IMG/VR virus record: IMGVR_UViG_2568526312_000003
Strand: one strand, 5' to 3'
Length of the DNA: 30,348 nt
Source of the DNA: a virus
Lineage: Duplodnaviria > Heunggongvirae > Uroviricota > Caudoviricetes
Part shown: one piece after another, positions 9,117 to 26,660 of the stretch
Layout of the letters: the number at the start of each line of letters is the position of its first letter
Position numbering within the stretch: the stretch's first letter is position 1
Notes under the pieces: model-generated
Databases searched by the model: none
Seen by the model: only the letters and a program-made list of their open reading frames with translations
Told to the model about the DNA's origin: nothing
Position numbers and translations under genes: made by a program

Positions 9117-9435
9117 CTGATGTATGTCTCCGTCACCGCCGACAGAAAATGAAAGTAAAGGAAAACAAAAAGCCGCCAGTGTCGCCCACTGACGGCCAAC
9201 GCCGGGAGCCGTGATTATGGCATTCAGGCTCTGCTAAAAATGCCAGATAACATTCCGGCTCCCCCCCCTGATTCAGGTTATAAATGACACAATATCTTGA
9301 CAACACCCATCACTGTCTGTCAGAAAATGTACTGCCAGATATAAGTATCATGTGAAACCCAACTATCCTTCTTAGCCAGTATGAACCGCCCCGGAAATCC
9401 TGGAGACTAAACTCCCTGAGAAAGAGGTAAACAGG

Positions 9436-9762
9436 ATGACTAAAAATACTCGTTTTTCCCCCGAAGTCCGTCAGCGGGCGATTCGTATGGTTCTGGAAAG
9501 TCAGGATGAATATGACTCACAGTGGGCGGCAATTTGTTCCATTGCCCCAAAGATTGGCTGTACGCCGGAGACTCTGCGTGTCTGGGTTCGCCAGCATGAG
9601 CGGGATACCGGGGGCGGTGATGGTGGGCTCACCAGCGCTGAACGTCAGCGTCTGAAAGAGCTGGAACGTGAAAATCGTGAACTGCGCCGCAGTAACGATA
9701 TCCTTCGCCAGGCTTCCGCTTATTTTGCGAAGGCGGAGTTCGACCGCCTCTGGAAAAAATGA
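9436..9762 (+). CDS. IS629 transposase OrfA (HTH)
   Basis: 108 aa [22 protein letters not shown]... matches IS629/IS3-family OrfA as recalled. Confidence 0.9.
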
Positions 9763-10649
9763 TGCCACTGCTGGATAAGCTGCGTGAGCAGTACGGGGTC
9801 GGACCGGTATGCAGCGAACTGCATATTGCCCCGTCAACGTATTACCATTGTCAGCAACAGCGACATCATCCGGATAAACGCAGTGCCCGTGCGCAGCACG
9901 ACGACTGGCTGAAGAGAGAGATACAGCGCGTATACGATGAAAATCATCAGGTGTACGGTGTGCGTAAAGTCTGGCGTCAGTTGTTACGGGAAGGAATCAG
10001 GGTGGCCAGATGTACAGTGGCACGTCTCATGGCGGTTATGGGACTTGCCGGTGTTCTCCGGGGTAAAAAGGTCCGTACGACCATCAGCCGGAAAGCCGTT
10101 GCCGCAGGCGACCGCGTAAACCGTCAGTTCGTGGCAGAACGACCTGACCAGCTGTGGGTGGCTGATTTTACTTACGTCAGCACATGGCAGGGCTTCGTCT
10201 ATGTGGCGTTTATCATTGATGTGTTTGCCGGATACATCGTGGGGTGGCGGGTCTCATCGTCTATGGAAACGACATTCGTGCTGGATGCGCTGGAGCAGGC
10301 GTTGTGGGCCCGTCGTCCGTCTGGCACCATCCATCACAGCGATAAAGGCTCTCAGTATGTGTCACTGGCCTATACGGAGCGACTAAAAGAAGCCGGATTA
10401 CTGGCATCAACAGGGAGTACAGGCGACTCGTATGACAACGCGATGGCTGAGAGCATCAATGGTCTTTACAAAGCGGAGGTAATACACCGTAAGAGCTGGA
10501 AAAACCGTGCAGAAGTGGAACTGGCCACACTAACGTGGGTGGACTGGTATAACAATCGACGATTGCTGGGAAGGCTGGGCCATACTCCTCCGGCAGAAGC
10601 AGAAAAAGCTTATTATGCTTCCATCGGAAACGATGATCTGGCAGCCTGA
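9759..10649 (+). CDS. IS629 transposase OrfB (DDE integrase core)
   Basis: 296 aa with the DDE region (WVADFTYV...HSDKGSQY...[15 protein letters not shown]); frameshift window ggaaaaaatga at 9752-9762. Confidence 0.9.
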
Positions 10650-10730
10650 GTTCACAGATAAAACACTCTCCAGGAAACCCGGGGCGGTTCAGTACTTCTC
10701 CGACGAAAGTCAGTACTGGCTGTTTTTTTA

Positions 10731-12581
10731 TTATGCTGCCGGTGCATTTATCTCCAGCATCAGACTTTCTATCTCAACGCCATACGCTGCATTTTTTGTA
10801 ACATCCGTCAGCGTCAGCGCATTCAGTCCCAGTGTCAGACTGTCTTTTATAACCTGGAATGCCGGGCCAGCCACTCCATTCAGTTTCGGAGTAACCATGG
10901 CACTGCCGGCGGTGAACACCAGCTCCAGCGTCTGCCAGTCGTTACCGTAATCGCCGAACTCCCCCAGCTTCGTGTTTCCGGCTTTCCTGTGATGCATCAG
11001 ATTCACCCTGCCGTCAGTGGTCTGAGTGAAGTACGACATCAGGAACGGATTACCGGTACCCGTCATCGCCACACCATCAGGAACGGGAGCATCCGTATAC
11101 AGATAAATCCCCAGCCCGAACTGATTGTTGGTCAGTGCGCCTGACAGGCGGAACTTACAGGTCAGTCTGCCGCCCTGTGTCAGCAGGGTAATTGCGTCAT
11201 CCACCGGATGCGTCAGGGACCAGGTTTTATTGCTCTGCCTGGTGATCTTAAATACACCATCTGACAACTGAATTCCGCCATCCTTAATGCTCCAGCCCTG
11301 CGCAGCAGCCTCTCCGGCTGCCGGCAGCAGGGAGATTGTGCGAACGGACGTATCTGCAGACGGACCCGATGGCGTGTTGCCGCCGGGCGAGGGTTTGATT
11401 TCCGGTGCCTTACCACTGATGAAGGCTGAGGTGCGCCCGGCTGCGTTCAGAATAGCGGTTGCCAGACGATCCGGAATAATGCTCCTGCGCGCCCATGAAC
11501 TGAAATGTGTCGGGCGGTTTGATGATACCTGGTTTCCATTCGTTCTCGATGCCGCACCGTAATATCCTGATGCCGGAATATCCGGATCTTCTGCCGGCGC
11601 GTTAGTGGCGGTATTGACGCCGTTACCGTCTGTCATGAAGGGCACAAAATAAACGCCCTCACTCTCCCTGTTTTTATACCCGCCGTACACGGTGTCGTAC
11701 TGGGTAGCGTATGTATTTTTCCAGTAATACGTCGTGTCACCACAAATCCACGGCACATCTGCAGCGCTGCCACCATGGCACTGCGCGTTAAACACGGAGA
11801 GGTCAGCACGAAACTGTGTCAGCATGGCTGTAAACAGCGCAGGTTGCTGTGCGTGGGTGGCGGCGCTCATGTCAAACTCACCCTGCATCCAGCAGACGGC
11901 CAGCAGAACGTTTTTGGGATTTTTCTGCAATGCCGCTTTTGTGCGGGAAATCAGATCCTGATATAACGGCTTGCCCACCCCCCAGCGTGCCGAATCCTGA
12001 CTGGCCCCCGTGGACTCGCTGAATGTCCCCTCCGCGCCCTGGGTAAATGCCGAACCACCACGACAGCATGGTACCAGCAGGATCCCCGCGTTATTCGGGA
12101 TATACGGGAGCAGTTTTTTGGCAATATGTAAACCCTGGCCGACACAGCCGTACTGCCCTTTGCTCAGGTCAGCCCTCGGATGATTCAGCGTACTCATATC
12201 CTGCACATCATGCAGACAGTGGTCAGCCGGAATAATATCGTTATATCTGCAGGCAGCCCCGCCCGGCGTCACTGTACTGCGGCGCGCCAGCTGTTTAATG
12301 CGCGGATCCGGAGCATCGTATGAATCCGGCAGCGGAAGCCCTTCACCGTAAGCCATGGCATTGGACTGCCCGGCCAGTACGATGACGTAGTACCAATCCG
12401 GCTCAGATGAAGGGCCGACCTGTGGCTCTCCTTCAATAGCCACCGCCTGCATCAGTGTGTACGGCGTAATGGCAACCGGTCCGCCGTATGGCTGCCAGCC
12501 CTCTTTCAGTTTGTGTGTCAGCTTTTCCGCAAGGTCTGACGGCGACGCCGCCCTGACAACATCATAATGTTTAATCGACAT
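10731..12581 (-). CDS. nanS: prophage sialate O-acetylesterase (NanS-p-like, SGNH/SASA domain)
   Basis: 616 aa, VLAGQSNAMAYGEG (GQSN esterase motif); location between the Q-tRNA region and the holin matches nanS-p of Stx-type phages. Confidence 0.65.
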   Translation of the reverse strand: MSIKHYDVVRAASPSDLAEKLTHKLKEGWQPYGGPVAITPYTLMQAVAIEGEPQVGPSSEPDWYYVIVLAGQSNAMAYGEGLPLPDSYDAPDPRIKQLARRSTVTPGGAACRYNDIIPADHCLHDVQDMSTLNHPRADLSKGQYGCVGQGLHIAKKLLPYIPNNAGILLVPCCRGGSAFTQGAEGTFSESTGASQDSARWGVGKPLYQDLISRTKAALQKNPKNVLLAVCWMQGEFDMSAATHAQQPALFTAMLTQFRADLSVFNAQCHGGSAADVPWICGDTTYYWKNTYATQYDTVYGGYKNRESEGVYFVPFMTDGNGVNTATNAPAEDPDIPASGYYGAASRTNGNQVSSNRPTHFSSWARRSIIPDRLATAILNAAGRTSAFISGKAPEIKPSPGGNTPSGPSADTSVRTISLLPAAGEAAAQGWSIKDGGIQLSDGVFKITRQSNKTWSLTHPVDDAITLLTQGGRLTCKFRLSGALTNNQFGLGIYLYTDAPVPDGVAMTGTGNPFLMSYFTQTTDGRVNLMHHRKAGNTKLGEFGDYGNDWQTLELVFTAGSAMVTPKLNGVAGPAFQVIKDSLTLGLNALTLTDVTKNAAYGVEIESLMLEINAPAA

Positions 12582-12661
12582 CGAATTTCTCCCGTGTAGA
12601 GGAACAGAGTTAAAAAGCCGGAAGCGGAATCAAATCACAGGATGACCATCTGCCAGTGGCT

Positions 12662-12695
12662 GGTCGTAAAAAAAGGCCGCGCCATGCGCAGCCGA
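12662..12695 (-). terminator. rho-independent terminator (minus strand)
   Basis: Minus strand ggctgcgcatggcgcggcc hairpin followed by ttttttt. Confidence 0.55.
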
Positions 12696-12894
12696 AAATA
12701 AAGGGATAACGATGATAGTTTGAGAAAAACAGAAATAACACTTTTGTGGCAAAGCATGGTGCCGGGTGCCTCCCGGTGAATTCAGTATCAGCACCTGAAT
12801 CCGCGATTACCCCATATTCCTTCTTGCTGATTGCCCCACCGCACAGGGGGATTCACCATGCAGAAGTGTTTTTAATAAACAGCAAACAAAAAAA

Positions 12895-13062
12895 TCAAGC
12901 ATTATGCAGGCTGTTTCTTTTTATCACCGGCCACAGCAATACCATAATGCCGCAGACCAGCACCCCATCCGCCAGCACCGACATGATTCTGCTGGTGAAA
13001 TCCACCATCACCACCAGAAACAGCAGGAGTGCAGCCACAGTCAGGCGCAGTTTTACCGTCAC
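12895..13062 (-). CDS. small hydrophobic membrane protein (55 aa, GTG start overlapping the upstream stop)
   Basis: VTVKLRLTVAALLLFLVVMVDFTSRIMSVLADGVLVCGIMVLLWPVIKRNSLHNA; ctGTGAcgg overlap with the TerB-like gene; not in the ORF track (<60 aa). Confidence 0.4.
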   Translation of the reverse strand: MTVKLRLTVAALLLFLVVMVDFTSRIMSVLADGVLVCGIMVLLWPVIKRNSLHNA

Positions 13063-13491
13063 AGGTAATTCTCCAGACGAAGACCCAGAACACCGGCAAT
13101 CTCTTCCAGCACCTTGCGCTCTTCCGGCTCAATTTCGCCGTCTGCCTCCGCAATGGCCACCGCCACATCCAGCACATCTTCCGCTTCACGCGTATCGTGT
13201 TTCACATCCTCGATCTCACGTAACGCCGCACGACGACCAGTTTTAAAGTTCGTATCCAGCTGACCGATAATGGTTGCGCTAATCGCATTAATTTCTGACG
13301 TAAACGCGTACAGCGCAGGCTGATTACGCAGTACCTGTTCGATCTTCGCTTTCTAGGAAGCCTCACATTCACCATCTGCACAGGCCACCAGGTATGCGGC
13401 GTTAATCACCACCTGTGCCAGATCGCGTTTTTCAAACTTTTTAATTTCCGTTGCCGCTCTGCGGGCTTTTTTTACCAAAAATACCAAACAT
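13059..13491 (-). pseudogene. TerB-like domain protein, inactivated by a frameshift in a T7/A7 run and an in-frame amber codon
   Basis: Minus strand: MFGIFGKK, frameshift at 13467-13473, then EIKKFEKRDLAQVVINAAYLVACADGECEAS, TAG at 13353-13355, then KAKIEQVL...IAEADGEIEPEERKVLEEIAGVLG. Assignment to TerB from recalled motif style. Confidence 0.5.
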
Positions 13492-13660
13492 CGTGACGTT
13501 CCTTTGGGTGGGTGAGCCAACGCCCGGGAGCGATCTGCCCACAGAGAAAGTCACACTGACCACTCCATAAGCTCCCCCCGAAAGGCTCTGTGGTTGGTAT
13601 GCGCCGGGCGTGGTGCGGATACAAAAAAGGTCCGCAAAAGCGAGCGAGGGAAAATAAGTG

Positions 13661-13737
13661 TGGTGCGTTGTACTGGGTTCGAACCAGTGACCGATTGCTT
13701 AGAAGGCAATTGCTCTGTCCGGCTGAGCTAAAAACGC
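13661..13737 (-). tRNA. tRNA-Arg (anticodon UCU)
   Basis: Cloverleaf on minus strand, anticodon loop CTTCTAA, T-arm GGTTCGAAC, 3' CCA encoded. Confidence 0.8.
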
Positions 13738-13750
13738 AGAATACCGATAA

Positions 13751-13829
13751 TGGACCGCCATCGGAGACTCGAACCCCGCGAAACCAGCTTCGAAGGCTGG
13801 CGTTCTATCCCGATGAGCTAATGGCGGTA
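13751..13829 (-). tRNA. tRNA-Arg (anticodon UCG)
   Basis: Anticodon stem CCAGC/GCTGG, loop CTTCGAA, T-arm GGTTCGAGT, CCA end; exact 5' end uncertain by 1-2 nt. Confidence 0.7.
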
Positions 13830-13834
13830 TGTGA

Positions 13835-13910
13835 TGGTGGCCCTTGCTGGATTTGAACCAGCGGCCTGGCGATTATGAGTCGCTCGCTCTCACCACTGAG
13901 CTAAAGGGCC
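13835..13910 (-). tRNA. tRNA with CAU anticodon (Ile2/Met, ileZ-like)
   Basis: GGCCCTTTAGCTCAGTGG...CTCATAA...GGTTCAAATCC...AAGGGCCACCA; 7-bp acceptor stem, anticodon CAT. Confidence 0.8.
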
Positions 13911-14030
13911 GGGCGCAGGATAATAACGTTACGAAATCAATGTTGCAAGCATTCAAGAATCACCTGGTTAAAAATTACCCTTGCTTCCTCCACCAGCGCA
14001 TTCACCATGTCTATCCGAGATAAGTGGCAC

Positions 14031-14060
14031 AAAAAAACCCGCTTGTGGGCGGGTTTTGTT
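14031..14060 (-). terminator. tR'-like intrinsic terminator downstream of Q (late-operon terminator)
   Basis: Minus strand aaacccgcccacaagcgggttttttt, about 60 nt downstream of the Q stop. Confidence 0.65.
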
Positions 14061-14120
14061 TGCTTTTGCCATCACGTACAAAATCGGCAAAATATCAGAT
14101 TTGCATGAAATATATGCCTT

Positions 14121-14816
14121 TCAATCTACTTTTGCAACACTTTGCTTTGAAAATGCCGCCTTTTGTTTTGAACGCGTTCTCATTACAAACAATAAAGCCT
14201 CACTATCCAGTCGGTGAAAAATGTGTTTCATTGCAACCCAGTGACGAGTAAATGTTTTGGACCAGTTTTTAGTTGTCACTCCCACCAGTAATGCCAGCTC
14301 CTTGTATTCATAACCTTCCCCACCAAAAAGTTCTGCTTTTACTGCCTGCGCCGCCAGCCAGATTAATTTTTTCAGGCGTTCCTGCGTTTTCCCTGCAATT
14401 TTTCTGGTACCGGATTGAGTATTAAATTCATTCCACGCCCACTGTGTTATCGCGATCTGATATTCCCAACAAATACTCCCGCTGTAACACCACAACAACC
14501 AGGCTTTATGATGTTCTTCAAGAGACAGAACAGCCCGCCGCCACGATGATGTCGAAAACTCAACCGGACTGACCAGAGGAATTGACGTCACCTTCGCCAG
14601 CGATTGCTTTCCCGGGATTGGTGGATTATCCCGCGTTATCATTTTTCCAGTCACTTCATCGCGGTACCGGATTTTTTTTCGCCTGTAACGCCCTGTATCG
14701 AACATGGCATTCTCCTGCCAGGCTTCAAGCTGACCTTTTGTTGCCCCACTCAAATCGGCGGTAGCGATAATGAGCAGCTCACGCACAAACTGTAAATAGT
14801 GGTTATTCATGCGCAC
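14121..14816 (-). CDS. Q: late-gene antiterminator Q (phage 82/Stx-phage type)
   Basis: 231 aa with TKGQLEAWQENAMF motif; located upstream of tR', the tRNAs and the lysis genes. Confidence 0.7.
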   Translation of the reverse strand: MRMNNHYLQFVRELLIIATADLSGATKGQLEAWQENAMFDTGRYRRKKIRYRDEVTGKMITRDNPPIPGKQSLAKVTSIPLVSPVEFSTSSWRRAVLSLEEHHKAWLLWCYSGSICWEYQIAITQWAWNEFNTQSGTRKIAGKTQERLKKLIWLAAQAVKAELFGGEGYEYKELALLVGVTTKNWSKTFTRHWVAMKHIFHRLDSEALLFVMRTRSKQKAAFSKQSVAKVD

Positions 14817-15166
14817 TCCAGTTCTGTGATTTTTATCCCCAGCCGCTCACCAGGAACGAGCTGACCGCGCACAATATTGATTTCATCAAACTGCTCATCG
14901 TCCATTAGCAACCCCGCATGCGTCAGCGCATCCAGCGGCGCTTTCAGAATATTGTCCAGGTCACGGCGGCGCTTATCCGGTGGCTCGGCAATAATCTTTA
15001 TCGCCAGCCTTCCGGACAGGCTTAATTTCAGCCGCTGCTGGCGAACAATAAGCGCCACAGCCCGGCGATAACGCTCACCGGCTTTTGATACAAAATATGT
15101 GCTGCCACGACGTCGCCAGTAGGTGTTCACCGTCGGCGGGTAAGGTAAAACCAAATCTATGAGCAT
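14807..15166 (-). CDS. rusA: Holliday junction resolvase RusA
   Basis: 119 aa, PPTVNTYWRR...PDKRRRDLDNILKAPLDALTHAGLL matches RusA. Confidence 0.85.
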   Translation of the reverse strand: MLIDLVLPYPPTVNTYWRRRGSTYFVSKAGERYRRAVALIVRQQRLKLSLSGRLAIKIIAEPPDKRRRDLDNILKAPLDALTHAGLLMDDEQFDEINIVRGQLVPGERLGIKITELECA

Positions 15167-15178
15167 CAGTCACCTCTT

Positions 15179-16228
15179 TTACCCGAGCACGCCAGTCGCA
15201 AAGGCGTGATCAAGAAAACGAAAAATTAACTCAATCTGAGAGCCGTACTTTTTCTCAAACTCCAGCGGGTCTGCATGAAGTTCGTTGTGGTGCTCCCGGC
15301 ACAACGGTAGCGTGAAAATATCGTGGGCCTTTGTCCCCATTCCCCCCTGACCATGACCAATCAGGTGATGCGGATCGTCAGCAGGCTTACCACAACACGC
15401 ACACGGCTGTGTCTTTACCCAGCGCGTGTATTTCTCATTAACCCAGCGGCAACGTTTAGGCCGCCTCATGAACGATTCAGGAGACTCCGGATCAACGGCG
15501 ATACTGACAACCGTTTTTTTCTGTGGTGGATTTTGTTGCTGGTGGACGTGAAGTGGCAGCGCAATATTTTTTGTGCGCTGCTTCAGTATGCTGATGGCTG
15601 TCTGTTCTCCCGGTACGATGTCACTCTCACGGTATACGGAGCGGATTTTTTCCGCTGGTAATCCCAGCGAACGACGCGCTACTGCCTCAGGTAGTGCATC
15701 CACCACCTGATTGCAGGCCGCCCACCAGGATAATTCAGCCAGCGATAATTCACGCTCCTGTGTGCCATTCATTGCGTGACGAATGACGTCAATCATCCAT
15801 GCTGACAGGTTTTGGTGAGCAAGTTGCTCAAGTGATTCGGAGGTCTGGTCACGCAACTGGTTGTCGCAGTGCCAGCACAACACCATTGCGCCGGTACCAT
15901 AACGGTGAATGACGGTTTCACTGTGGTGATAATCGCCGTGTGGCCACTGGCAGGATTTAACATGGCGCAGTAACCAGTCAGACAGTGCGCCAGCGCCACC
16001 CGCAGCACGAATCACTCGTTCGTCGCTGAAAAATGGCAGTAATGATTTATCCTCCGCCAGCGGCTGGCGAACGGCAGGAACGACCCCGGACGGCAGATTA
16101 CGCATGCTTTTCGGTTCCGGCTCCACCAGTACCCGGGTATTGTGGAATACCGGCATGGATTCACGGCCCGGCTTAACGATCACCAGCCCGAGTTCCGGTA
16201 CCAGAACAGGTCGAAGTAATACCCGCAC
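15179..16228 (-). CDS. DUF968-type prophage protein (YdfU-like) with C-terminal HNH-like Cys/His motif
   Basis: 349 aa; C-terminus CACCGKPADDPHHLIGHGQGG...LCREHHNELH; position between rusA and hok matches the Qin ydfU neighbourhood (memory). Confidence 0.6.
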   Translation of the reverse strand: MRVLLRPVLVPELGLVIVKPGRESMPVFHNTRVLVEPEPKSMRNLPSGVVPAVRQPLAEDKSLLPFFSDERVIRAAGGAGALSDWLLRHVKSCQWPHGDYHHSETVIHRYGTGAMVLCWHCDNQLRDQTSESLEQLAHQNLSAWMIDVIRHAMNGTQERELSLAELSWWAACNQVVDALPEAVARRSLGLPAEKIRSVYRESDIVPGEQTAISILKQRTKNIALPLHVHQQQNPPQKKTVVSIAVDPESPESFMRRPKRCRWVNEKYTRWVKTQPCACCGKPADDPHHLIGHGQGGMGTKAHDIFTLPLCREHHNELHADPLEFEKKYGSQIELIFRFLDHAFATGVLG

Positions 16229-16229
16229 G

Positions 16230-16507
16230 TTACCTCCAGATGCGTTGCTGGAATGTGCGGGACGGACGCGGTGGGCGTTCGGAGTAAGGAAGCCTGACGG
16301 AGATTATCCAGTGACGATAATCGAGACTGAGGGCTTTCTTAACCTCGTATCCGCGCCTGCGGTAACACTGAATCAGCCATTCAGCCTGTTCTTCGGTGCA
16401 GGGGTCGTGCTGATACCAGTCAGATTTGAATGCATGAGAACGCCGCCCGTGCCTGCTGGCAGGGGCGGCAGAGTTATCCGAATTGTAAAATTTGGTATCG
16501 TGCGCCA
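16230..16507 (-). CDS. hypothetical nin-region protein (91 aa from the internal ATG; track ORF extends to 16637 across a terminator)
   Basis: Coding-like composition after the 16579-16607 terminator; no motif recognised. Confidence 0.4.
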
Positions 16508-16578
16508 TCTGTTTTCTCTGCTGGCGCAGCAGGTGCCAGTTGTTCAGGCTGACGGATGGATTGTAAACCAGAACGACC

Positions 16579-16607
16579 AGAAAAAACAAAACCCGCCGAA
16601 GCGGGTT
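16579..16607 (-). terminator. rho-independent terminator downstream of hok
   Basis: Minus strand aacccgcttcggcgggtt hairpin followed by ttgttttttct. Confidence 0.6.
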
Positions 16608-16675
16608 AAGTGCGGGTGCGTTGAGGATGCCTGACACATCAGCGGTGGCGAGGGATTTCTCCCCCGCCTGGTCTC

Positions 16676-16831
16676 TTACTCCTCAGGTTCGTAAGCTGTG
16701 AAGACAGCGACCTCCGTCTGGCCGGTTCGGATTCGTACCTCGCAGAGGTCTTTCCTCGTTACCAGTGCCGTCACTATGACGGTTAAACAGATGACGATCA
16801 GGGCGATTAACATCGCCTTTTGCTGCTTCAT
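16676..16831 (-). CDS. hok: Hok/Gef family type I toxin (HokD/RelF-like), with in-frame Mok-like upstream extension to 16888
   Basis: MKQQKAMLIALIVICLTVIVTALVTRKDLCEVRIRTGQTEVAVFTAYEPEE; SD aggaga; 70-aa in-frame extension resembles Mok. Confidence 0.85.
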   Translation of the reverse strand: MKQQKAMLIALIVICLTVIVTALVTRKDLCEVRIRTGQTEVAVFTAYEPEE

Positions 16832-17074
16832 AACCTGCTTCTCCTTGCCTTTCGGCGCGTAAGAGGCTAACCTACGTTTGTGAAGCATAGATTGGGCCTC
16901 AGATTAATGTTAAGCGTCTTGCAGGACGCGTAATGTTAACTGGGGCTTTTCTCTGTCTGCCTTACGGTGGCATGCCCGAGGCAGACAGCCTCAAGCACCC
17001 GCAGCAATTCTACTTAACTCTCGCTTTACAGCAAACCGTTTTGCCCGATATGGGAATTCCCATACGGAATGAAT

Positions 17075-17179
17075 TCAGTTCCCCAGGCGCTCCATCAAAA
17101 ACACAACCAGGCAGTAAACACCCACAACAGCAATAACAGCCAGAGCGCCTTCCATTACCAGTGAAATATCATCCGACAT
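17075..17179 (-). CDS. 34-aa hydrophobic peptide (candidate small membrane protein)
   Basis: agggaggg SD 6 nt before ATG; MSDDISLVMEGALAVIAVVGVYCLVVFLMERLGN; not in ORF track (<60 aa). Confidence 0.35.
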   Translation of the reverse strand: MSDDISLVMEGALAVIAVVGVYCLVVFLMERLGN

Positions 17180-17288
17180 ATTCCCTCCCTTGGTGTGAAT
17201 CCCGGCGAACGTTTTTACCCCCACCGACAAATAACATATACTAGAAAAGCAATAGCTATAGCAACGCCTGCAAATGCATCTGGCCGGC

Positions 17289-17852
17289 TCATTGGTTCTC
17301 CCCCTGTGTCGCTTCTACTGCGATCTGACTGGCGTATTCGTTAATGGTAACGATAAGTTCTTGCTCGGCCTCATCCAGACAACTACCGATACCTCGCCTG
17401 TCCACTTCAGAAGCATCGAAATCTGCACGAAGCCTGGCGACCTTCAGGATTGCGGACAACACCTCATCAGGGATTGCCGGAGAGTTGGTTGACGTTTCCG
17501 AGATTATCCGAAAATTATTGGTTGACGAACCCTTATTTTCCCGAAAGTTTCCAGCCTGAAGCATGGCGGCGCGGTGACACCAGATAATCCAGCCAAGCGC
17601 CATATCCCATGCCATGTATTCTCTATCGCCATTTTTTGCTCTGCGGCGATCTACAGATTCCCCGAAACGCTTCTCCATAAATAATTCATAGGCTGCCCGT
17701 TCATCCGATACTGATGCCAGTGATGCCAGTGCAATTTTTAATGCGGTAAGCATGTTGTTTTGATCTTCATCGAGTCCGAACGGTATTTCATCCCGTGATG
17801 ACTCAATTCCGGTAATCGTGTTCTGTAGCCATTCTTTGGTTAATTCAGTCAT
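17289..17852 (-). CDS. hypothetical nin-region protein (187 aa)
   Basis: Long intact ORF in operon orientation; no motif recognised. Confidence 0.5.
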   Translation of the reverse strand: MTELTKEWLQNTITGIESSRDEIPFGLDEDQNNMLTALKIALASLASVSDERAAYELFMEKRFGESVDRRRAKNGDREYMAWDMALGWIIWCHRAAMLQAGNFRENKGSSTNNFRIISETSTNSPAIPDEVLSAILKVARLRADFDASEVDRRGIGSCLDEAEQELIVTINEYASQIAVEATQGENQ

Positions 17853-17978
17853 TTTTCACTACCGCCCTTTCGGGCGGTCTCCTGATGTTCTGAGGGTGCA
17901 GGAATCCCTCCGGTTAAGGATTTAATAAAAATCATTTCTGATTTAAATTTTCAGTGTTTAGTTGTTGGTTTATAGCCT

Positions 17979-18290
17979 TTATGCTTCGGCCTTATTTCTC
18001 AGCCATACACAAACAGGACCATCTTCGGTGTCATGTATCGAACCGATAAACCATCCCTCACCTTCTGGTCGCTCAGGTTCCCATGCTGAAATATCAGGGC
18101 CATCTGCGTCCAGATTAAAATCATCTTCATCCATACTACGGATAGCCCACTGAAGATTATTTTTCTCCATCCAGGCGTTAAACTCTTCCGTTGAAATATA
18201 TTCCCGACCATCACAGAATTTTTCATATTCAGGATGCGTCCAGCAGCCATATTCATTACGTTCCACTGGCATTTCTTTAATTACGCTCAT
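17979..18290 (-). CDS. hypothetical acidic protein (103 aa)
   Basis: Intact ORF whose start overlaps the stop of the upstream gene by 4 bp. Confidence 0.5.
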   Translation of the reverse strand: MSVIKEMPVERNEYGCWTHPEYEKFCDGREYISTEEFNAWMEKNNLQWAIRSMDEDDFNLDADGPDISAWEPERPEGEGWFIGSIHDTEDGPVCVWLRNKAEA

Positions 18291-18475
18291 TTACCCCCCT
18301 TATTTAATTTTCTACGACACTTTTTACAATCATCTGGACTTTCGAATGTATCCGGCTCACGCTCATTGCCAAAATACATCCACCCACCGCAAATACTTGT
18401 TATTTCACCTTCAGCAAAATAATGATGTTTTTTCGCCATAAGTGGCCTTGCCCAGCCCGGATTCGTTTTACTCAC
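18287..18475 (-). CDS. hypothetical small protein with CxxC (62 aa)
   Basis: CGGW...CKKCRRK cysteine pairs; 4-bp overlaps with both neighbours. Confidence 0.45.
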   Translation of the reverse strand: MSKTNPGWARPLMAKKHHYFAEGEITSICGGWMYFGNEREPDTFESPDDCKKCRRKLNKGGK

Positions 18476-18828
18476 TTGTTGCCTCCTTTGCGAAGCTCTG
18501 CGACTAACTCGTCACATATGTGCGTCAAAGAGCAAAGTTTGATTGCTGGATGTTCGCGCACCATCTCCACACCCTGCGCCCGCAATTCTGCCAGAAAAGC
18601 GTAGGGGTCAGTTTTTTCACTGTGGTACATGGCATCATAGATAATCATTGCAGCGACACCTGCCTGTCCTGCATCTGTGACGGATATATGCTCAAGGGCT
18701 ACGGCCATTGCGTGTTTCAACCTCTCATTTTCCACCTCAAGCACCACACGATTAGCCTCCAGCTCTTCTATGCGTTTTTTTGCTGCTCCCAGCTCAACAC
18801 GCAGCTCCTGATAGTTAATCTCGCTCAT
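18472..18828 (-). CDS. hypothetical protein with N-terminal coiled-coil (118 aa)
   Basis: ELRVELGAAKKRIEELEANRVVLEVENERLK heptad-like; overlapping start and stop. Confidence 0.5.
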   Translation of the reverse strand: MSEINYQELRVELGAAKKRIEELEANRVVLEVENERLKHAMAVALEHISVTDAGQAGVAAMIIYDAMYHSEKTDPYAFLAELRAQGVEMVREHPAIKLCSLTHICDELVAELRKGGNK

Positions 18829-19049
18829 TCTCCTTCCTCCCGCACTGCTGTTTTATATGCCCGAAGCACATGCGATGTTTTTCCTGACACAGTGCTTCTC
18901 AGAAAGAAAATTCCACTGGTGTTTATTACCAGATACGGGTCAGCAAGACGCAGCATATCCAGTATGTGATTATGTTTTCTTGTTTCCAGCACCGTACTTG
19001 AAATAAGCATATGTGACACGGGGCCGAAATCATGATATCTGATTTTCAT
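18825..19049 (-). CDS. hypothetical protein (74 aa)
   Basis: First ORF of a run of four genes with overlapping stops and starts; no motif recognised. Confidence 0.4.
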   Translation of the reverse strand: MKIRYHDFGPVSHMLISSTVLETRKHNHILDMLRLADPYLVINTSGIFFLRSTVSGKTSHVLRAYKTAVREEGE

Positions 19050-19070
19050 ATCATCACCCTGCTGTAAAAA

Positions 19071-19835
19071 TTACCCGTTATCTCCTGTCGTTATTTTCTG
19101 TATGACATCACGATGCTTATTAATTTCCCGCAGCGCGGCGCATAAGCGCTCCCACTTCTGAACCTGACCTTTTGCCCGGCGCAGCTCGCGGTTAGCCACA
19201 TGCAGCGATGGTAAAATCAGACCATCCGGATGCTTTCTGATGAACGACGACTGTGACTGCACTGTGACCGCCACACTTTCAGTTTTAATTTCTTCCTGTG
19301 TTTCCGCTTCCCGGACTGGTAACGCAACACCTGCCGGCTGAGGAAAGGCTTTACCATCGGTTTCCGTTACCGATGCAGCTTTCGGCTCTGCCGGTAAATT
19401 ATCGCCCGGTATGCAGTAACGATATTTACCGTCCTGATTTACGCGAATCAGACGACCTTTGCTGACAGCCATCGCCAGTGATGAATTCGCCCGGCGGGAG
19501 GTAATCCCGAACATTAACGCCAGTTCGTCAGCCGACTGAGGACCATGCTGTTCAATCGCGTTAATCAGCATCTCTGCAGTGGTTTTTGGGGCCGCTTCAG
19601 TTGCCTCACTCGTCAGCCACCACATCGACCCCTTGTTATCAGCTTCGCCACGACGCTTCAGCTTCCAGAGTTCGGTAACAGCATCGTCACGGCTGATTTC
19701 AAGACGGGCTGCAATCTCGTGCGACGAGGCTTTTTTCAGTGCTTTCAGTGCGTCAAAAACGGTTTCCATTAAATTTTCCTCCCGGTAAAAATTACTTCTC
19801 AACTCAGACAAAACCGGCCGCCTTCCGGCGCTCAT
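19071..19835 (-). CDS. hypothetical phage protein (likely starts at internal METVFDAL, about 19769)
   Basis: 254-aa ORF; N-terminal HTH-like region ([26 protein letters not shown]). Confidence 0.5.
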
Positions 19836-20466
19836 ATTCCTGTTTCAGCAATTCAATTGGCGTTGGCCCTGGCGGGCGTTTGGGTGCTGCCAGTTGTCGC
19901 CGGACTGGCGGAACACTGAGGCCATTACCAACATGCTTTGCCCATTTCGTCAGCTGCCTTTCCACAAGCCGTTTTAACTCCCCTTCGGTCATCTGGCGCT
20001 CAATCCCCTTTGAACGCATCTCGAGGCAAATGTGGTACAGCACCGGCTGTGGCCACGGGTATTTATCACTCCCGTCGTACCGCCAGGATTCATTCCTCCA
20101 GCGACGGTACTCCTCCATCACGGCATCCACCGTCAGGCCAAATGGATTTGCCCCGCTCTCCGAAATCAACGCCACAAACTCAGCCAGATCCGGAGGCCAC
20201 GTTTCACCCGCCCGGCAGCGGTCCATGCACTGACGGCAGACCTGCCGGATTTGCTGTTCAGTCATCGCGCCAATCTGAGCAATCCAGAGCTTCGACGGCG
20301 CAGCCCCGTTCTTCTGGGTCCAGCGGTTCGAATACACCTCCCCCATAAGTTCCCACAGCTTCCAGGCCGTTTCCGTTGCTGATAAATCCGTTTTCACGTT
20401 CCCACTGTTCACGTGCTGCCCGAATTTCCTGAACTGCCCGTGATGCGGTGCCACCTGGTGCTGCAT
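19804..20466 (-). CDS. P: replication protein P-like (helicase loader); start uncertain (20265-20466)
   Basis: C-terminal half ([33 protein letters not shown]...[10 protein letters not shown]) aligns with recalled lambda P; overlaps the O ORF end in another frame. Confidence 0.65.
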
Positions 20467-21301
20467 GGCTTACCCCCTTGCTGACTGGTTTTACCTGTGC
20501 CCTGACGTGCTGCACGTGACGGGCAAATTTCTGCTCCCACTGAACCTGCGTGAAAACCTTCCCCTCCGCCATCCAGTAATCCCGGAATGCGGCAAGCTCA
20601 GCAGGTGTAAACTCAGGCTCAGGCAGAGCCATACCCCACACTGCTGCCCGCTGTCGAAAATCCGGCGACGGTTGCCAGACTCCAGTCATCGGAAATTTCC
20701 CGATCGGTTCGCTCAGGCCGTCCAGGTATTCAGGTTCGGCTGTCTGCAACGACGCGTCATTCAACTCACCGGTCGTAGCACTCTCGCGCATGCGCGCGTT
20801 ATGTGTGGGGTTTAATTCTTTATCTGTATCTGTATCTGTCGTGATTTGTCGTGACATATGCGTGACGCGTCGTGACTCATCGTGACAATCAGTGTTCTGC
20901 TTCCGCAGTCTTTCCCGCTCCCGCTGCGCTCTCTTGCGCTCTGCCGGGGATTTTGCGGTTTGCGAAACATTACCGTTATCCTCCTTCATCACCTGGCGTT
21001 TTTCCCATCCGGAAATAAGATCACCATCCAGAACTCGCCCCTGCATTGCATGCAAAATTGAATCAATCACGTCTTCCGTCACATCAAGCGCATTTGCTAA
21101 ATCTTCCGTCGTGACATCAATGTGACCACGTAGTGACACGCCGTGACATGTCGTGACATTTCGTGACGCACTCACCAGAAGGTGGATATACACCGCCATC
21201 ACTGTTGCGATTGGCTGTCCTGAGACCCTGGCAATGGTTCGCCATTTGGGATCATTTGGCATGTCATGCCACAATCTGAGCCAGGCATTAGCCATACTCA
21301 C
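20258..21301 (-). CDS. O: replication initiator O-like protein with embedded origin iterons
   Basis: 347 aa; N-terminus MANAWLRLWHDMPNDPKWRTIARVSG (O-like, memory); contains two arrays of YCGTGAC repeats at 10-bp spacing. Confidence 0.65.
   Translation of the reverse strand: MSMANAWLRLWHDMPNDPKWRTIARVSGQPIATVMAVYIHLLVSASRNVTTCHGVSLRGHIDVTTEDLANALDVTEDVIDSILHAMQGRVLDGDLISGWEKRQVMKEDNGNVSQTAKSPAERKRAQRERERLRKQNTDCHDESRRVTHMSRQITTDTDTDKELNPTHNARMRESATTGELNDASLQTAEPEYLDGLSEPIGKFPMTGVWQPSPDFRQRAAVWGMALPEPEFTPAELAAFRDYWMAEGKVFTQVQWEQKFARHVQHVRAQVKPVSKGVSHAAPGGTASRAVQEIRAAREQWERENGFISNGNGLEAVGTYGGGVFEPLDPEERGCAVEALDCSDWRDD
20821..21167. repeat. phage replication origin: (TATCTG)x3 plus five iterons (20838-20886) and a second array of six iterons (21109-21167)
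   Basis: tcgtgac/gtgac cores at 20840, 20850, 20861, 20870, 20881 and at 21109, 21121, 21131, 21141, 21151, 21161. Confidence 0.7.
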
Positions 21302-21363
21302 CTCATCTGATACCGAACTTTACCCTCGAACATCCGGAAGAAATCCGGCATGAATATTGTTGG

Positions 21364-21788
21364 TCAATGCACGACAACAGCATTACCAGGCTGACCACCA
21401 CTGTTAGTCAGGGTGCCCCAGGCGATCGCCGCTGCGACAAAATCATCCACATCTTTCACCAGCCGATCCCTCCGTTCGACGATCTCACGGTAATATTCAG
21501 AGCTGTGACTGCGCATACGGGCCACCAGCAGAGGCGGCATTGCCTTTTCGATCGCCGGTAACAGAGCCTGAATTTTTCAACAGCATCAGGGGTGTCTTTA
21601 TCCAGCCAACGGAAAATTTTCTGGGTATTACGAGCCAGGGCTTCCGGATGGCTGTCGTCGTACAGTTCCGGGAACGTCATCCCCAGCTCGAAATAAGTCC
21701 GGGCTATTTCAGCTGCAGGAACTTTCTCACCGTCCGGATAGGCCCAGGCATTGATCGCCATGCGGATGTGCTCATGTTTGATTTTCAT
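21364..21788 (-). pseudogene. YdaT-like (cII-position) protein, frameshifted at a T5/A5 run near 21574-21578
   Basis: ORF 21456..21788 starts MKIKHEHI; after ...AVEKF the plausible continuation (QALLPAIEKAMPPLLVARMRSHSSEYYREIVERRDRLVKDVDDFVAAAIAWG...) is in another frame. Confidence 0.5.
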
Positions 21789-22012
21789 GAATCCCCCTTT
21801 CCTTCGCCCTGAGTGGTATCCTTCTTTTTGTAAAGTTCTGGGTTCAAAGATAATTTCCCCTTGGAGTATGCAGCAGCTTCCGCAGCCCTCCCCTTCGGAA
21901 CTATTTCACCAGGACGCTTACGCCACATGTAAATAGCTTCGCGGGTTATCCCATAAAAATCGGCAACCCTCTGAACAGAACCAAAAAACTGGACAAGTTC
22001 ATCAACTCGCAT
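21785..22012 (-). CDS. cro: Cro-like repressor (YdaS/DicC-type HTH)
   Basis: 75 aa, divergent from the cI-like gene; HTH-like VQRVADFYGITREAIYMWRKR; SD aggagg. Confidence 0.7.
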   Translation of the reverse strand: MRVDELVQFFGSVQRVADFYGITREAIYMWRKRPGEIVPKGRAAEAAAYSKGKLSLNPELYKKKDTTQGEGKGDS

Positions 22013-22021
22013 TTTACCTCC

Positions 22022-22090
22022 TAAATCTAAGCATTTTTAGATTACAAGATAATTTTTTTTAGGTCAATGCAATCTAAAATAATTTATATT
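22022..22090. promoter_or_regulatory. OR operator region with PR (minus) and probable PRM (plus)
   Basis: Repeated ATCTAA/TTAGAT half-sites at 22024-22043 and 22070-22078; minus-strand PR TTGACC-17-TAATCT (-35 at 22062-22067, -10 at 22038-22043). Confidence 0.6.
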
Positions 22091-22106
22091 CAATTTGCAG
22101 GAGAAA

Positions 22107-22754
22107 ATGATGGAAAGCCTTGGCTTCAGGCTTAAGAGACTTAGAAAAGATAAGGGGCTGACCCAAGTAGAACTGGGTAAGCTTTCAGGCGTGACTGGGG
22201 TTACTATAGGGTACTGGGAGAAAGATCTAAACGAACCAGGTAGCAAAGCTCTAAGTAAGTTAGCCCAGGCATTAGGAACTACTGAGTCCTATCTCCTATA
22301 TGGAGTATCGTCTCCTGAATTATCTTTTGTACAAAGTACCTCAGGCACCAAGATCCCCTACCTTTCGTGGGGTGAGGCGATTTCTTTCCTAATCTTAAAA
22401 GGAGAGAAAACAATGGGAAATGTCGATAGAATCACCACATTCTTTGATGTCGAGGAAGGTGATTTTGCCGTTTCAATGCCTGATGACACAATGCATAACC
22501 CATCAGGATCACCGAGTATCCCAGTTGGTGCTACTGTGATCCTAAGGCCAGGAGAAAGTTATAAAAATGGCAGCATCGTCGCTGTAATAGTTCCGGATCC
22601 GCTTAAAAATGAACCATCTATGACTATAAAGAAATTAGTTATTGATGGGAAGCTTGTGTATTTAAGCCCTCTCAATCCACGCTATCAGTCATCCTTACTT
22701 ACACCAGAGTGTAAAATTGTTGCCGTAGCAAAAGGTGTACAGTTCAACTTATAA
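22107..22754 (+). CDS. cI: CI-like prophage repressor (HTH plus S24/LexA-like peptidase domain)
   Basis: N-terminal HTH (GLTQVELGKLSGVTGVTIGYWEK); C-terminal S24-like region (SMPDDTMHNP...GSIVAVIV...KKLVIDGKLVYLSPLNP). Confidence 0.8.
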   Translation: MMESLGFRLKRLRKDKGLTQVELGKLSGVTGVTIGYWEKDLNEPGSKALSKLAQALGTTESYLLYGVSSPELSFVQSTSGTKIPYLSWGEAISFLILKGEKTMGNVDRITTFFDVEEGDFAVSMPDDTMHNPSGSPSIPVGATVILRPGESYKNGSIVAVIVPDPLKNEPSMTIKKLVIDGKLVYLSPLNPRYQSSLLTPECKIVAVAKGVQFNL

Positions 22755-22775
22755 CCCGCCACGTCCTTTACTTGA

Positions 22776-22800
22776 GGTCGGCAATGCCGACCTTTTTTTT
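22776..22800 (+). terminator. rho-independent terminator after the repressor gene
   Basis: ggtcggc aat gccgacc hairpin followed by T8. Confidence 0.75.
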
Positions 22801-22805
22801 AAATT

Positions 22806-22850
22806 AATCTAGATTTACCTTGACTGAAAAACTAAATACTTTTAGATTTA
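22806..22850 (+). promoter_or_regulatory. PL promoter with OL operators
   Basis: TTGACT (22820-22825), 17-bp spacer, TAGATT (22843-22848); palindrome AATCTAGATT at 22806-22815 and TTTAGATTTA over the -10. Confidence 0.6.
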
Positions 22851-23028
22851 TTACATACCACCCTACCTCGCCCCACAGAACGTCGGGCAATACCTCGAGT
22901 TACCCGGCAGTGGTCAGGGGTTAAGTAGCCAGCCCGAGGCGTATGAACATGACGGCGGGAACACTTTGTATAACAGCGCAGCAGGTTTTTAGTTCCGCGA
23001 CCCGGCGTTAAGGGTAAATGAGGTCAAC

Positions 23029-23181
23029 ATGGATATGCTCAATCTTGGCAACAATGAATCTCTGGTGTGCGGAGTATTCCCCAACCACGACGGCACGTTT
23101 ACCGCGATGACGTATACCAGAAGTAAAACGTTTAAAACCGAAGCTGGCGCGCATCGCTGGTTAGCAAGAAACGCTAACTGA
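23029..23181 (+). CDS. 50-aa protein, YdfA-like (first gene of the dicB-type operon)
   Basis: SD gagg 6 nt upstream; MDMLNLGNNESLVCGVFPNHDGTFTAMTYTRSKTFKTEAGAHRWLARNAN; not in ORF track (<60 aa); identity from memory. Confidence 0.45.
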   Translation: MDMLNLGNNESLVCGVFPNHDGTFTAMTYTRSKTFKTEAGAHRWLARNAN

Positions 23182-23444
23182 TTAGCGCCAGTAAAAACAG
23201 GTTTCCACAGGTTAATTTACCCTGAAAAGTCAGGGCATAACACGAAAGCGCACGGCGAAGTTAGTCTCTCTGTATAGGTCGTCGTTAAATTTAATTCGAC
23301 CGTGCGCTTCTGGTTGTGGCAATCCGCGAAATGGCGCGGCGGTAAGTATGGCGGGGTTATTCCTTCCCCCGTTGAGGACACCGGGTTGTCAGGTTGACCA
23401 TACGCTTAAGTGACACCCCAGCCACAACAACCTCTGTTATCACT

Positions 23445-23483
23445 TTTCTGGTGATTCGGCGGAAATGGATATCCGCCCTTTTT
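23445..23483 (+). ncRNA. dicF: DicF-like small RNA (variant with shortened or divergent body)
   Basis: tttctggtga...ggcggaaatggatatccgccctttttaaagtgaattttgtgatg resembles the 5' end, terminator and downstream flank of E. coli dicF as recalled; lies just upstream of a dicB homolog. Confidence 0.5.
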
Positions 23484-23661
23484 AAAGTGAATTTTGTGAT
23501 GCGGTGAATGCGGCTATGCGCACGCGGAACAGTTAAAGCAGTAAGGCGGTCTTTTACTGGCGTAACGAGCATCAACTAACCCGACGTTAATTGTTAACTG
23601 GTTAACGTCACCTGGAGGCACCAGGCACTGCATCACAAAATTCATTGTTGAGGACGCGATA

Positions 23662-23850
23662 ATGGAAACGTTATTACCAAACGTTAATACGTCTGAAGGT
23701 TGTTTTGATATTGGTGTTCTGCTCAGTAATAAAGCGTTTACTGAGGATGCCATTAATATGCGGAAATATGAGCCTTATCTGCTCAATGATAATTCCATTC
23801 TTTCCCGAATTGCCCTTATTAAACTTGGTATTTTCGGAGAACGTCAATGA
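23662..23850 (+). CDS. dicB: DicB-like cell division inhibitor
   Basis: METLLPNVNTSEGCFDIGV...FTEDAIN matches the recalled DicB N-terminus; 62 aa. Confidence 0.7.
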   Translation: METLLPNVNTSEGCFDIGVLLSNKAFTEDAINMRKYEPYLLNDNSILSRIALIKLGIFGERQ

Positions 23851-24035
23851 CTTCAGCATTTGCACTGGTGATGACGGTTTTTCTTATAACGGGTGAATCA
23901 CAGAATGTTATTACCGGAATTTATGCCAGTAAAGAATCCTGCCTCCAGGCAAGAGACGAGCAAAAAATTTCTGGTGAATGCCTACCGGTAAAAAAAGTAT
24001 CGCTGTACCTGAATAACGAAACACCGGCTGGATAA
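23847..24035 (+). CDS. YdfD-like small protein (N-terminal hydrophobic segment)
   Basis: 62 aa, ATGA overlap with the dicB-like gene; MTSAFALVMTVFLITG hydrophobic start. Confidence 0.5.
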   Translation: MTSAFALVMTVFLITGESQNVITGIYASKESCLQARDEQKISGECLPVKKVSLYLNNETPAG

Positions 24036-24130
24036 CCCGCCAGCCATATTAACGCCATACCAACGGATTAAAAATGCCAGCAATGGCAGGGATTCGTTCA
24101 CCCTGAAATCTGTAATGAGGTTAAAACACA

Positions 24131-26602: not shown

Positions 26603-26660
26603 TGTTCAACCCGGATCGCCGCTAACGGCATATAGTTAGCGGCGGTTGTGAGATATAGCT

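Follow-up and report, generated by a model that had tools for sequence, protein, structure and literature searches.

A question raised by this locus is what a prophage carries in the place where Shiga toxin (Stx) phages carry stxAB, and whether the cargo still works. The window, by which is meant the whole stretch of 30,348 nucleotides of the virus record IMGVR_UViG_2568526312_000003, has at this place two overlapping genes on the minus strand, the first encoding a TerB-like protein and the second a small hydrophobic protein. The locus is interpreted, with a probability of roughly 0.8, as a copy of tciA-tciB, an accessory operon of phages, that has become a pseudogene within the late operon of a lambdoid and defective prophage of Escherichia coli O157:H7. 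The pair is not an unrecognised module, since the tci names, in use for P1 for years, are found in the deposited annotations of phages P1 and JLK-2012. The finding is also already known in that the tciA of the window is marked as a pseudogene ('internal stop') in RefSeq.

For identification, tciA was repaired by removal of one A from a homopolymer run and by changing an internal TAG to GAG. The repaired protein has 143 amino acids (aa), not the approximately 145 aa given in the preliminary description of the DNA. It matches the Pfam family TerB (PF05099) with 45.7 bits (cut-off 24.4, E = 9.5e-12) and phrog_632 ('tellurite resistance') over 143/143 positions (2e-68), and a profile of 10 TciA homologues matches the TerB structure of Klebsiella (PDB 2JXU) at residues 12-137 with E = 2.8e-14. 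The match of residues 87-140 to the DjlA model of NCBIfam is weak (E = 4e-7) and lies far under the family cut-off. The product of tciB, with two hydrophobic stretches in its 55 aa, is read here as a probable membrane hairpin; it matches DUF3927 (Pfam PF13064) with 60.4 bits (E = 1.7e-16) and, at full length, phrog_1470 'TciB-like' (1.8e-29). Searches of Pfam and other databases with the repaired and the 55-aa open reading frame (ORF) thus found TerB and DUF3927, and the Pfam and PHROG matches agree with the initial proposal of a TerB-like gene with a real gene for a small membrane partner.

The arrangement of the two genes is that of the tciA-tciB module. A gene for a TerB-type TciA is directly followed on the same strand by a gene for a DUF3927-type TciB, and the stop codon of the first overlaps the start codon of the second in the GTGA at 13062..13059. 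This overlap is present as first described, and it suggests that translation of the two genes is coupled. The module of P1 continues with tciC after tciB; in the window an sRNA (small RNA) gene and a terminator follow tciB instead. In tblastn searches against deposited phages, TciA was 96.5% identical to TciA of JLK-2012 and approximately 51% identical to TciA of P1, P7 and D6, with tciB adjoining in all of them.

Two lesions are found in tciA, of which an amber codon carries the case for a pseudogene. The plus-strand CTA at 13353-13355 is a TAG on the coding strand and stands at the position of Glu46. Aligned with JLK-2012, the intact gene has TCA GAG where the window has TCC TAG, and the allele of O145:H28, with TCC GAG and a run of six A, is an exact one-step precursor. 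Glu46 is the glutamate of the first ADGxxxxxE motif of TerB and is invariant in an alignment of 10 sequences, with homologues down to 49% identity. The second motif (A116-D117-G118...E124) is intact in the window. The score against the PF05099 model thus places the repaired protein in the family, while the two ADG-x5-E motifs are not found in one polypeptide; with TAG in place of Glu46 in motif 1, the locus is a pseudogene of a TerB family member and not a functional member. As the reading frame stands, the amber is the unambiguous inactivating lesion, and full-length TciA cannot be made. It would also end the translational coupling, and tciB would still be translatable from its own GGAG, at a probably lower level. 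The earlier view that the amber is a substitution and a sign of real decay is upheld, as it replaces an invariant residue and the allele has become fixed in hundreds of genomes.

The second lesion is a run of seven T on the plus strand at 13467-13473, which is A7 on the coding strand. The intact alleles compared, from the JLK-2012, O145:H28 and B1_2 loci, have A6. TciA of P1 starts with MFGKLFGKK and the enterobacterial homologues start with MFG.F.KK, and these N-termini indicate that the ATG at 13491 is the ancestral start. With A7 the frame from this ATG terminates after 16 codons. A TTG at 13487 is nevertheless in the TerB frame despite A7, and this is why RefSeq flags only the internal stop in the tciA of the window and calls the A7-only allele of O157:H7 strain 2159 intact. 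The run is therefore where it had been described, but it is a frameshift only relative to the ancestral ATG, and its status as an inactivating lesion by itself is doubtful and needs to be qualified.

The distribution of the broken allele shows that it is not confined to the window. A 41-mer probe able to seed only across the TAG was searched in 5426 complete E. coli genomes and was found at 960 places in 576 of them, including O157:H7, O111 and chicken isolates. The exact 90-mer with A7 is present in 554 E. coli records, and A7 was found in all amber alleles inspected (5/5). Positions 12600-13660 of the window are 100% identical in at least 30 independently assembled complete O157:H7 genomes, and the O26 and O55:H7 loci have the same amber allele. 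In O157:H7 strain PV15-279 the allele with both lesions is found in two different prophages, with only three differences across tciAB and with homology between the copies ending about 38 nt upstream of the ATG; a third prophage of this strain encodes an intact TciA of 145 aa together with TciB. The presence of the double-lesion allele in several prophages and lineages indicates an old allele that recombination has spread from prophage to prophage. Intact paralogues are present elsewhere in such genomes. Of the 5426 genomes, 806 carry the tciAB pair, with roughly 3000 copies in all and a median of four per carrier. The comparison with related prophages thus gave intact copies in JLK-2012, in O145:H28, where strain 12E115 has WP_136139198.1 together with WP_000216636.1, and in the paralogue of PV15-279.

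Three database proteins differ from these alleles. P0004 is a TciA of the A7 type with Trp (TGG) at the amber position and looks like a one-step reversion of TAG, and P0011 (197 aa) and P0064 (170 aa) are TciA-TciB fusions. All three could be real variants or assembly errors.

The prophage itself is defective, with two insertion sequence (IS) elements and with frameshifted portal and terminase genes, and the decay of tciA agrees with this general decay. The portal gene is split into 1352..1837 and 1936..2943 and the gene of the large terminase into 3130..4824 and 4775..5116 (all on the minus strand), which leaves the prophage unable to package DNA on its own. A copy of IS1203/IS629 at 9382-10691 (orfA 9436..9762, orfB 9759..10649, with an ALIL frameshift pseudoknot at 9717-9833) lies between the holin gene and nanS-p and could separate the lysis genes from the late transcript. 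ISEc8, a 2.4 kb element of the IS66 family at 27382-29820 (transposase 27416..28954, tnpB 29004..29351, tnpA 29348..29749), splits the integrase gene in the region 26864-30348. In other O157:H7 strains it is IS1203 that lies in the integrase gene, or ISEc8 lies in terS. A hokD toxin gene with a sok antisense RNA (Rfam RF01794, 114.9 bits) is found at 16676-17000 on the minus strand, upstream of the DUF968-RusA-Q block.

The intact pair was followed outside E. coli by scanning one genome per species for relatives of TciA, which gave 19 loci. The neighbours of these were typed by Pfam scans; blastp of the window proteins against the loci gave few matches. A TciB-like ORF directly follows tciA in 13 of the 19 loci (E <= 3e-9), and of two further loci one has a weak TciB match and the other a divergent hydrophobic ORF in which the same ..S.VSD..L.G core is present. 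A stop/start overlap, in the form of GTGA, TAATG or TGATG, was present in all tciA-tciB pairs examined (14/14, Enterobacterales). The intact pair lies between Q, accompanied or not by tRNAs, and either nanS-p or the lysis cassette, which is the slot of stxAB in Stx phages; prophages of Pseudescherichia and Pantoea stewartii have the order Q ... tciA-tciB-holin-lysozyme. The P1-type tciA of Dryocola, Serratia and Pectobacterium adjoins an integrase gene, and in Dryocola also the gene of a P2 GPA-type replication protein. The TciA protein is 87-90% identical among prophages of E. coli, Pantoea, Franconibacter and Pseudescherichia. The median pairwise ratio of nonsynonymous to synonymous substitution rates (dN/dS) is about 0.28 for the tciB family and about 0.03 for tciA, whose synonymous sites approach saturation in comparisons between genera. 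Both are real, selected genes, and the constraint on TciA, which is unusually strong for an accessory gene, hints at a conserved host target.

A mechanism for the intact module can be put forward by analogy. Transcription would start at pR', together with that of the late genes, and would depend on antitermination by Q. TciB would act as inner-membrane anchor or partner for an acidic, probably cation-binding TciA, in the manner of TerB with the membrane and TerC, and the pair would stabilise or monitor the cytoplasmic membrane between the onset of late gene expression and holin-triggered lysis. The outcome might be protection against superinfecting phages or pore-forming colicins, or an adjustment of lysis timing. 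The TerB domain is associated with the membrane and forms part of the defence systems Bunzi and Shango, and phages are inhibited by ter operons (bioRxiv 10.1101/2022.05.11.491447); the proposed membrane protection follows these features and the colicin-resistance phenotypes of ter operons. In the window the function of the module would be lost and the dead tciA would ride along, with selection still keeping the tRNAs, the STnc100/PasD-type sRNA and nanS-p. The mechanism of the intact module as a whole, from late transcription and a TciB anchor to protection or monitoring of the membrane, is a tentative proposal.

Several observations weigh against this mechanism or against the reading of the locus as a dead tciA-tciB operon. 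A7 by itself may leave the gene active, and the loss of function therefore rests on the amber. No tciB was detected beside the TciA homologues of Pseudomonas, Paracoccus and Marinomonas, which are outside Enterobacterales. The literature searched gave no experimental test of TciA or TciB function, with mentions at the level of annotation only, and the mechanism is drawn from homology and position. Contact between TciA and TciB is hypothetical, and the fusion proteins P0011 and P0064 may be frameshift or assembly artefacts. Phage 434 (locus L005, 1832-3064) has tciB without tciA between Q and nanS-p, and the gene upstream of its tciB encodes a 247-aa multi-pass membrane protein, unrelated to TciA and with no Pfam match; as tciB is here paired with this protein, TciB need not act only as an anchor of TciA. 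Transcription from the late promoter is suggested by position and a consensus scan, and the tRNAs and tciAB could have a promoter of their own in a second promoter-like site at 13948..13920.

A broader reading is that intact tciAB is an uncharacterised late function of phages, directed at a conserved host membrane target and serving superinfection or colicin exclusion or the timing of lysis. A TerB-fold sensor and the small membrane protein TciB would make up the device. The reading starts from the abundance of the pair, its retention between Q and the lysis genes in several enterobacterial genera and a constraint on TciA resembling that of housekeeping genes. It is rather unlikely as it stands. 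If true, the repeated survival of tciB where tciA has been lost would reflect a function of tciB of its own, and the copy in the window would be a dead witness.

Improbable is a toxin-antitoxin or abortive-infection system, with TciB as a membrane toxin, TciA as the protein that neutralises it or acts as a sensor, and a remnant of the system in the window. The architecture is similar, with a soluble protein and a short hydrophobic membrane peptide in translational coupling, tciAB is found in mobile elements beside other accessory genes, and the TerB domains of Bunzi and Shango and the inhibition of phages by ter operons point in the same direction. However, O55:H7 RM12579 and strain TB354 each have an intact tciB next to a dead tciA, and the 90-mer search gave no second tciA place in either genome. 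A toxin lacking its neutraliser would not be expected to be kept like this, except where the lysogen never expresses it. Phage 434 likewise has tciB without tciA, and tciA, tciB and tciC of P1 were each non-essential in individual knock-down by CRISPR interference (CRISPRi; PMC10695390). A search of PADLOC-DB v2, which includes Shango and Bunzi, gave no match for TciB and for TciA only PDC-S48 with 13.7 bits (E = 0.006); this being nothing usable, membership of tciAB in a defence system was rejected. The helicase and ATPase partners that define Shango are not at the locus of the window, where the neighbours are tRNAs, the sRNA and nanS-p. The stress, abortive-infection or toxin-like module envisaged in the preliminary description is thus left without support from PADLOC, from the retention of tciB beside dead tciA and from phage 434.

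That the tciA of the window still works is very improbable. It would have to start at TTG 13487 or to rely on slippage in A7, and in addition on read-through or suppression of the amber, or its two halves would have to act as separate peptides. The TTG is in the TerB frame and is accepted by the NCBI pipeline for the A7-only allele, and proteins starting with MVFLVKK are present in databases, so this part of the explanation has something in its favour. Slippage is opposed by the other alleles, in which the same lysines are encoded by the interrupted AAAAAGAAAA, so that the run is not a conserved one; the idea of a conserved tract, whether slippery or phase-variable, was rejected for this reason. 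Programmed recoding is likewise not indicated, as intact alleles have A6 or the interrupted run and GAG at codon 46. The Trp of P0004, resembling a one-step reversion, and the high frequency of the amber allele (576 genomes) could speak for a gene that is still in use, but the abundance largely reflects heavy clonal sampling of O157:H7 and copying between prophages. Known suppressor transfer RNAs insert residues other than Glu. None of the three phage tRNAs (0/3) has a CUA anticodon, and the glutamate at this position is the same in 10/10 aligned homologues. The sole in-frame restart past the amber, GTG 13205, would give a 48-aa fragment without the first motif.

That the lesions are sequencing or assembly artefacts in an ordinary intact cargo gene, as might be thought of the one in a homopolymer run, where sequencing errors classically occur, is refuted by the complete identity across the at least 30 genomes, which come from different laboratories and platforms, by the amber being a substitution recovered at 960 places, by the 554 exact records of the A7 90-mer and by the occurrence of both lesions also in O26, O55:H7, O111 and chicken isolates, and its probability is negligible.

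With the pseudogene established as the preferred reading, the position of tciAB can be compared with that of stx. In the Stx1 phage Stx1_14040, stx1A-stx1B lies downstream of Q and directly upstream of yjhS/nanS-p, and short segments of the sequence following stx1B are homologous to window positions 12875..12833 and 12783..12753, just after tciB. Gene order and shared downstream flank thus confirm that the pair occupies the slot equivalent to that of stx. Further occupants of the slot, or additions to it, are an AraC-type regulator upstream of tciAB, an IS element, and the membrane protein of phage 434 with tciB. The slot was seen to gather several cargo genes in an O157:H7 prophage: the third prophage of PV15-279 (at 2.16 Mb; locus L013, 3837-4550) has a gene of an AraC-family regulator (PF12833) between Q and the intact tciAB.

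It was also observed that tRNA genes adjoin tciAB in unrelated phage types, namely P1, JLK-2012 and the prophage of the window. P1 (locus L003, 1415-3285) has Asn and Thr tRNAs upstream of tciAB and a tRNA with CAT anticodon downstream, JLK-2012 (locus L002, 3599-4593) has Asn, Thr and Gly tRNAs by tciAB, and the window (12895-13910) has Ile(CAT), Arg and Arg. The tRNAs and tciAB may travel together as a cassette.

The features of the locus are collected in the table. The RefSeq-type annotation of strain PV15-279 is colinear with window positions 10690-27381, and features outside this range are the window's own ORFs.

Table. Features of the late-operon cargo region around tciAB, with coordinates in the window.
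Feature	Position	Strand	Evidence and remarks
Late antiterminator Q	14121..14810	-	ORF; 'bacteriophage antitermination protein Q' at identical coordinates in the colinear O157:H7 locus; upstream boundary of the late-operon cargo region
pR'-like promoter	14137..14109	-	-35 TTGCAA 14137..14132, -10 TATATT 14114..14109; consensus scan
tR'-like terminator	14053..14031	-	Stem CCCGC/GCGGG 14053..14038, then T7 14037..14031
Second promoter-like site	13948..13920	-	Consensus scan
Three phage tRNA genes	13661..13910	-	CAT anticodon (annotated tRNA-Ile), Arg-TCG, Arg-TCT; ARAGORN, Rfam tRNA, RefSeq annotation
Shine-Dalgarno AGGA of tciA	13503..13500	-	8 nt ahead of ATG 13491
tciA pseudogene (TerB family)	13059..13491	-	ATG 13491-13489, TGA 13061-13059; 143 aa once repaired
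GGAG of tciB	13074..13071	-	8 nt upstream of GTG
tciB, 55-aa DUF3927 gene, intact	12895..13062	-	GTG 13062-13060, stop 12897-12895; annotated WP_000216649.1
sRNA gene of the STnc100/PasD family	12718..12890	-	Rfam RF02076
Intrinsic terminator	12668..12693	-	Hairpin GGCTGCGC-ATG-GCGCGGCC, then T7
nanS-p, SASA-family sialate O-acetylesterase, 616 aa	10731..12581	-	ORF and annotation; downstream boundary of the cargo slot

From their position, the pR'-like and tR'-like sites probably delimit a short leader of the late transcript. Weak isrK/isrJ-like Rfam matches, below the gathering score, were seen at 14104..14032 on the minus strand, on this leader after Q, and fit a 6S-like short late transcript.

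The terminator that had been taken to close the gene pair does exist, with a stem at 12693..12675 of 8 pairs, 7 of them G-C, followed by T7, and the hairpin is predicted to form at the 3' end of the folded 231-nt RNA. Its assignment to tciAB is unlikely, because a predicted sRNA gene intervenes. The Rfam match to RF02076 (STnc100) has 100.8 bits (gathering score 47, E = 2.6e-22) and takes up most of the sequence from the tciB stop to the terminator. It spans model positions 1-206 with the 3' hairpin of the model itself deleted, and the separate terminator lies 25 nt beyond it. The terminator is thus more likely that of the sRNA, shared with read-through from tciAB. STnc100 has been related to the PasD sRNAs of prophages, which lie beside the gene of the sialate esterase, and genes for TerB, RusA and DUF1627 are typical neighbours of the PasA and PasC sRNAs (Storz laboratory preprint, bioRxiv 10.64898/2026.05.13.724894). 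The sRNA may have its -10 box in the CATAAT at 12906..12901, within the final codons of tciB. A 31-aa ORF at 12902..12807, which overlaps the tciB stop, was considered as an analogue of tciC and set aside: it lies inside the sRNA match, by eye it has no evident likeness to TciC of P1 (no alignment was made), and phage 434 annotates another frame there.

For the window itself these results are of little import, as its prophage is decaying, public annotation already marks the locus correctly as a pseudogene, and it is one of several paralogous copies in the same genome. The slot is of wider concern, since in many prophages of Shiga toxin-producing E. coli it is filled by strongly conserved tciAB with tRNAs and sRNA. 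The function of tciAB would show what lambdoid phages gain from the cargo position, and whether phage proteins with the TerB fold serve membrane protection, exclusion or lysis control. This question is better addressed on an intact tciAB than on the copy in the window.

Among the known systems, stxAB of the Stx phages shares with tciAB the slot after Q and immediately before nanS-p/yjhS and the lysis genes, the downstream flank and presumably the control by the late promoter. The genes and proteins are unrelated, and the equivalence is positional only. TerB of the terZABCDEF operon (the Klebsiella protein of PDB 2JXU) has the PF05099 domain and the pair of ADG-x5-E motifs in common with TciA. 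In contrast to TerB, which is accompanied by TerZ, TerA, TerC, TerD, TerE and TerF, TciA stands alone, and its partner is a DUF3927 protein and not TerC. Bunzi, Shango and DjlA share with TciA a domain of the TerB type, whose presumed place of action is the inner membrane. They differ from the TciA locus in the helicase and ATPase of Shango, in the transmembrane and lipid-binding TerB protein of Bunzi and in the J-domain of DjlA.

The same gene families as in the window (phrog_632 and phrog_1470) are found in the same order in P1, P7 and D6, with tRNAs adjoining and, in P1, with TAATG as the overlap. P1 differs in that tciC follows tciB, in that the operon lies between dmt and ban and not in a Q-dependent late operon, and in the low TciA identity (about 51%). 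The tci operon is often absent from P1-like phage-plasmids (PMC9603915). The closest system is JLK-2012, a lambdoid phage from O55:H7, which has the order Q-tRNAs-tciA-tciB-yjhS/nanS-p-lysis (S-R-Rz) and the GTGA overlap of the window, with the TciA identity of 96.5% given above. Like the window it has no annotated tciC, and tciC appears to be specific to P1-type elements and not defining for the lambdoid form. Unlike the window, JLK-2012 has an intact tciA, with A6 and GAG.

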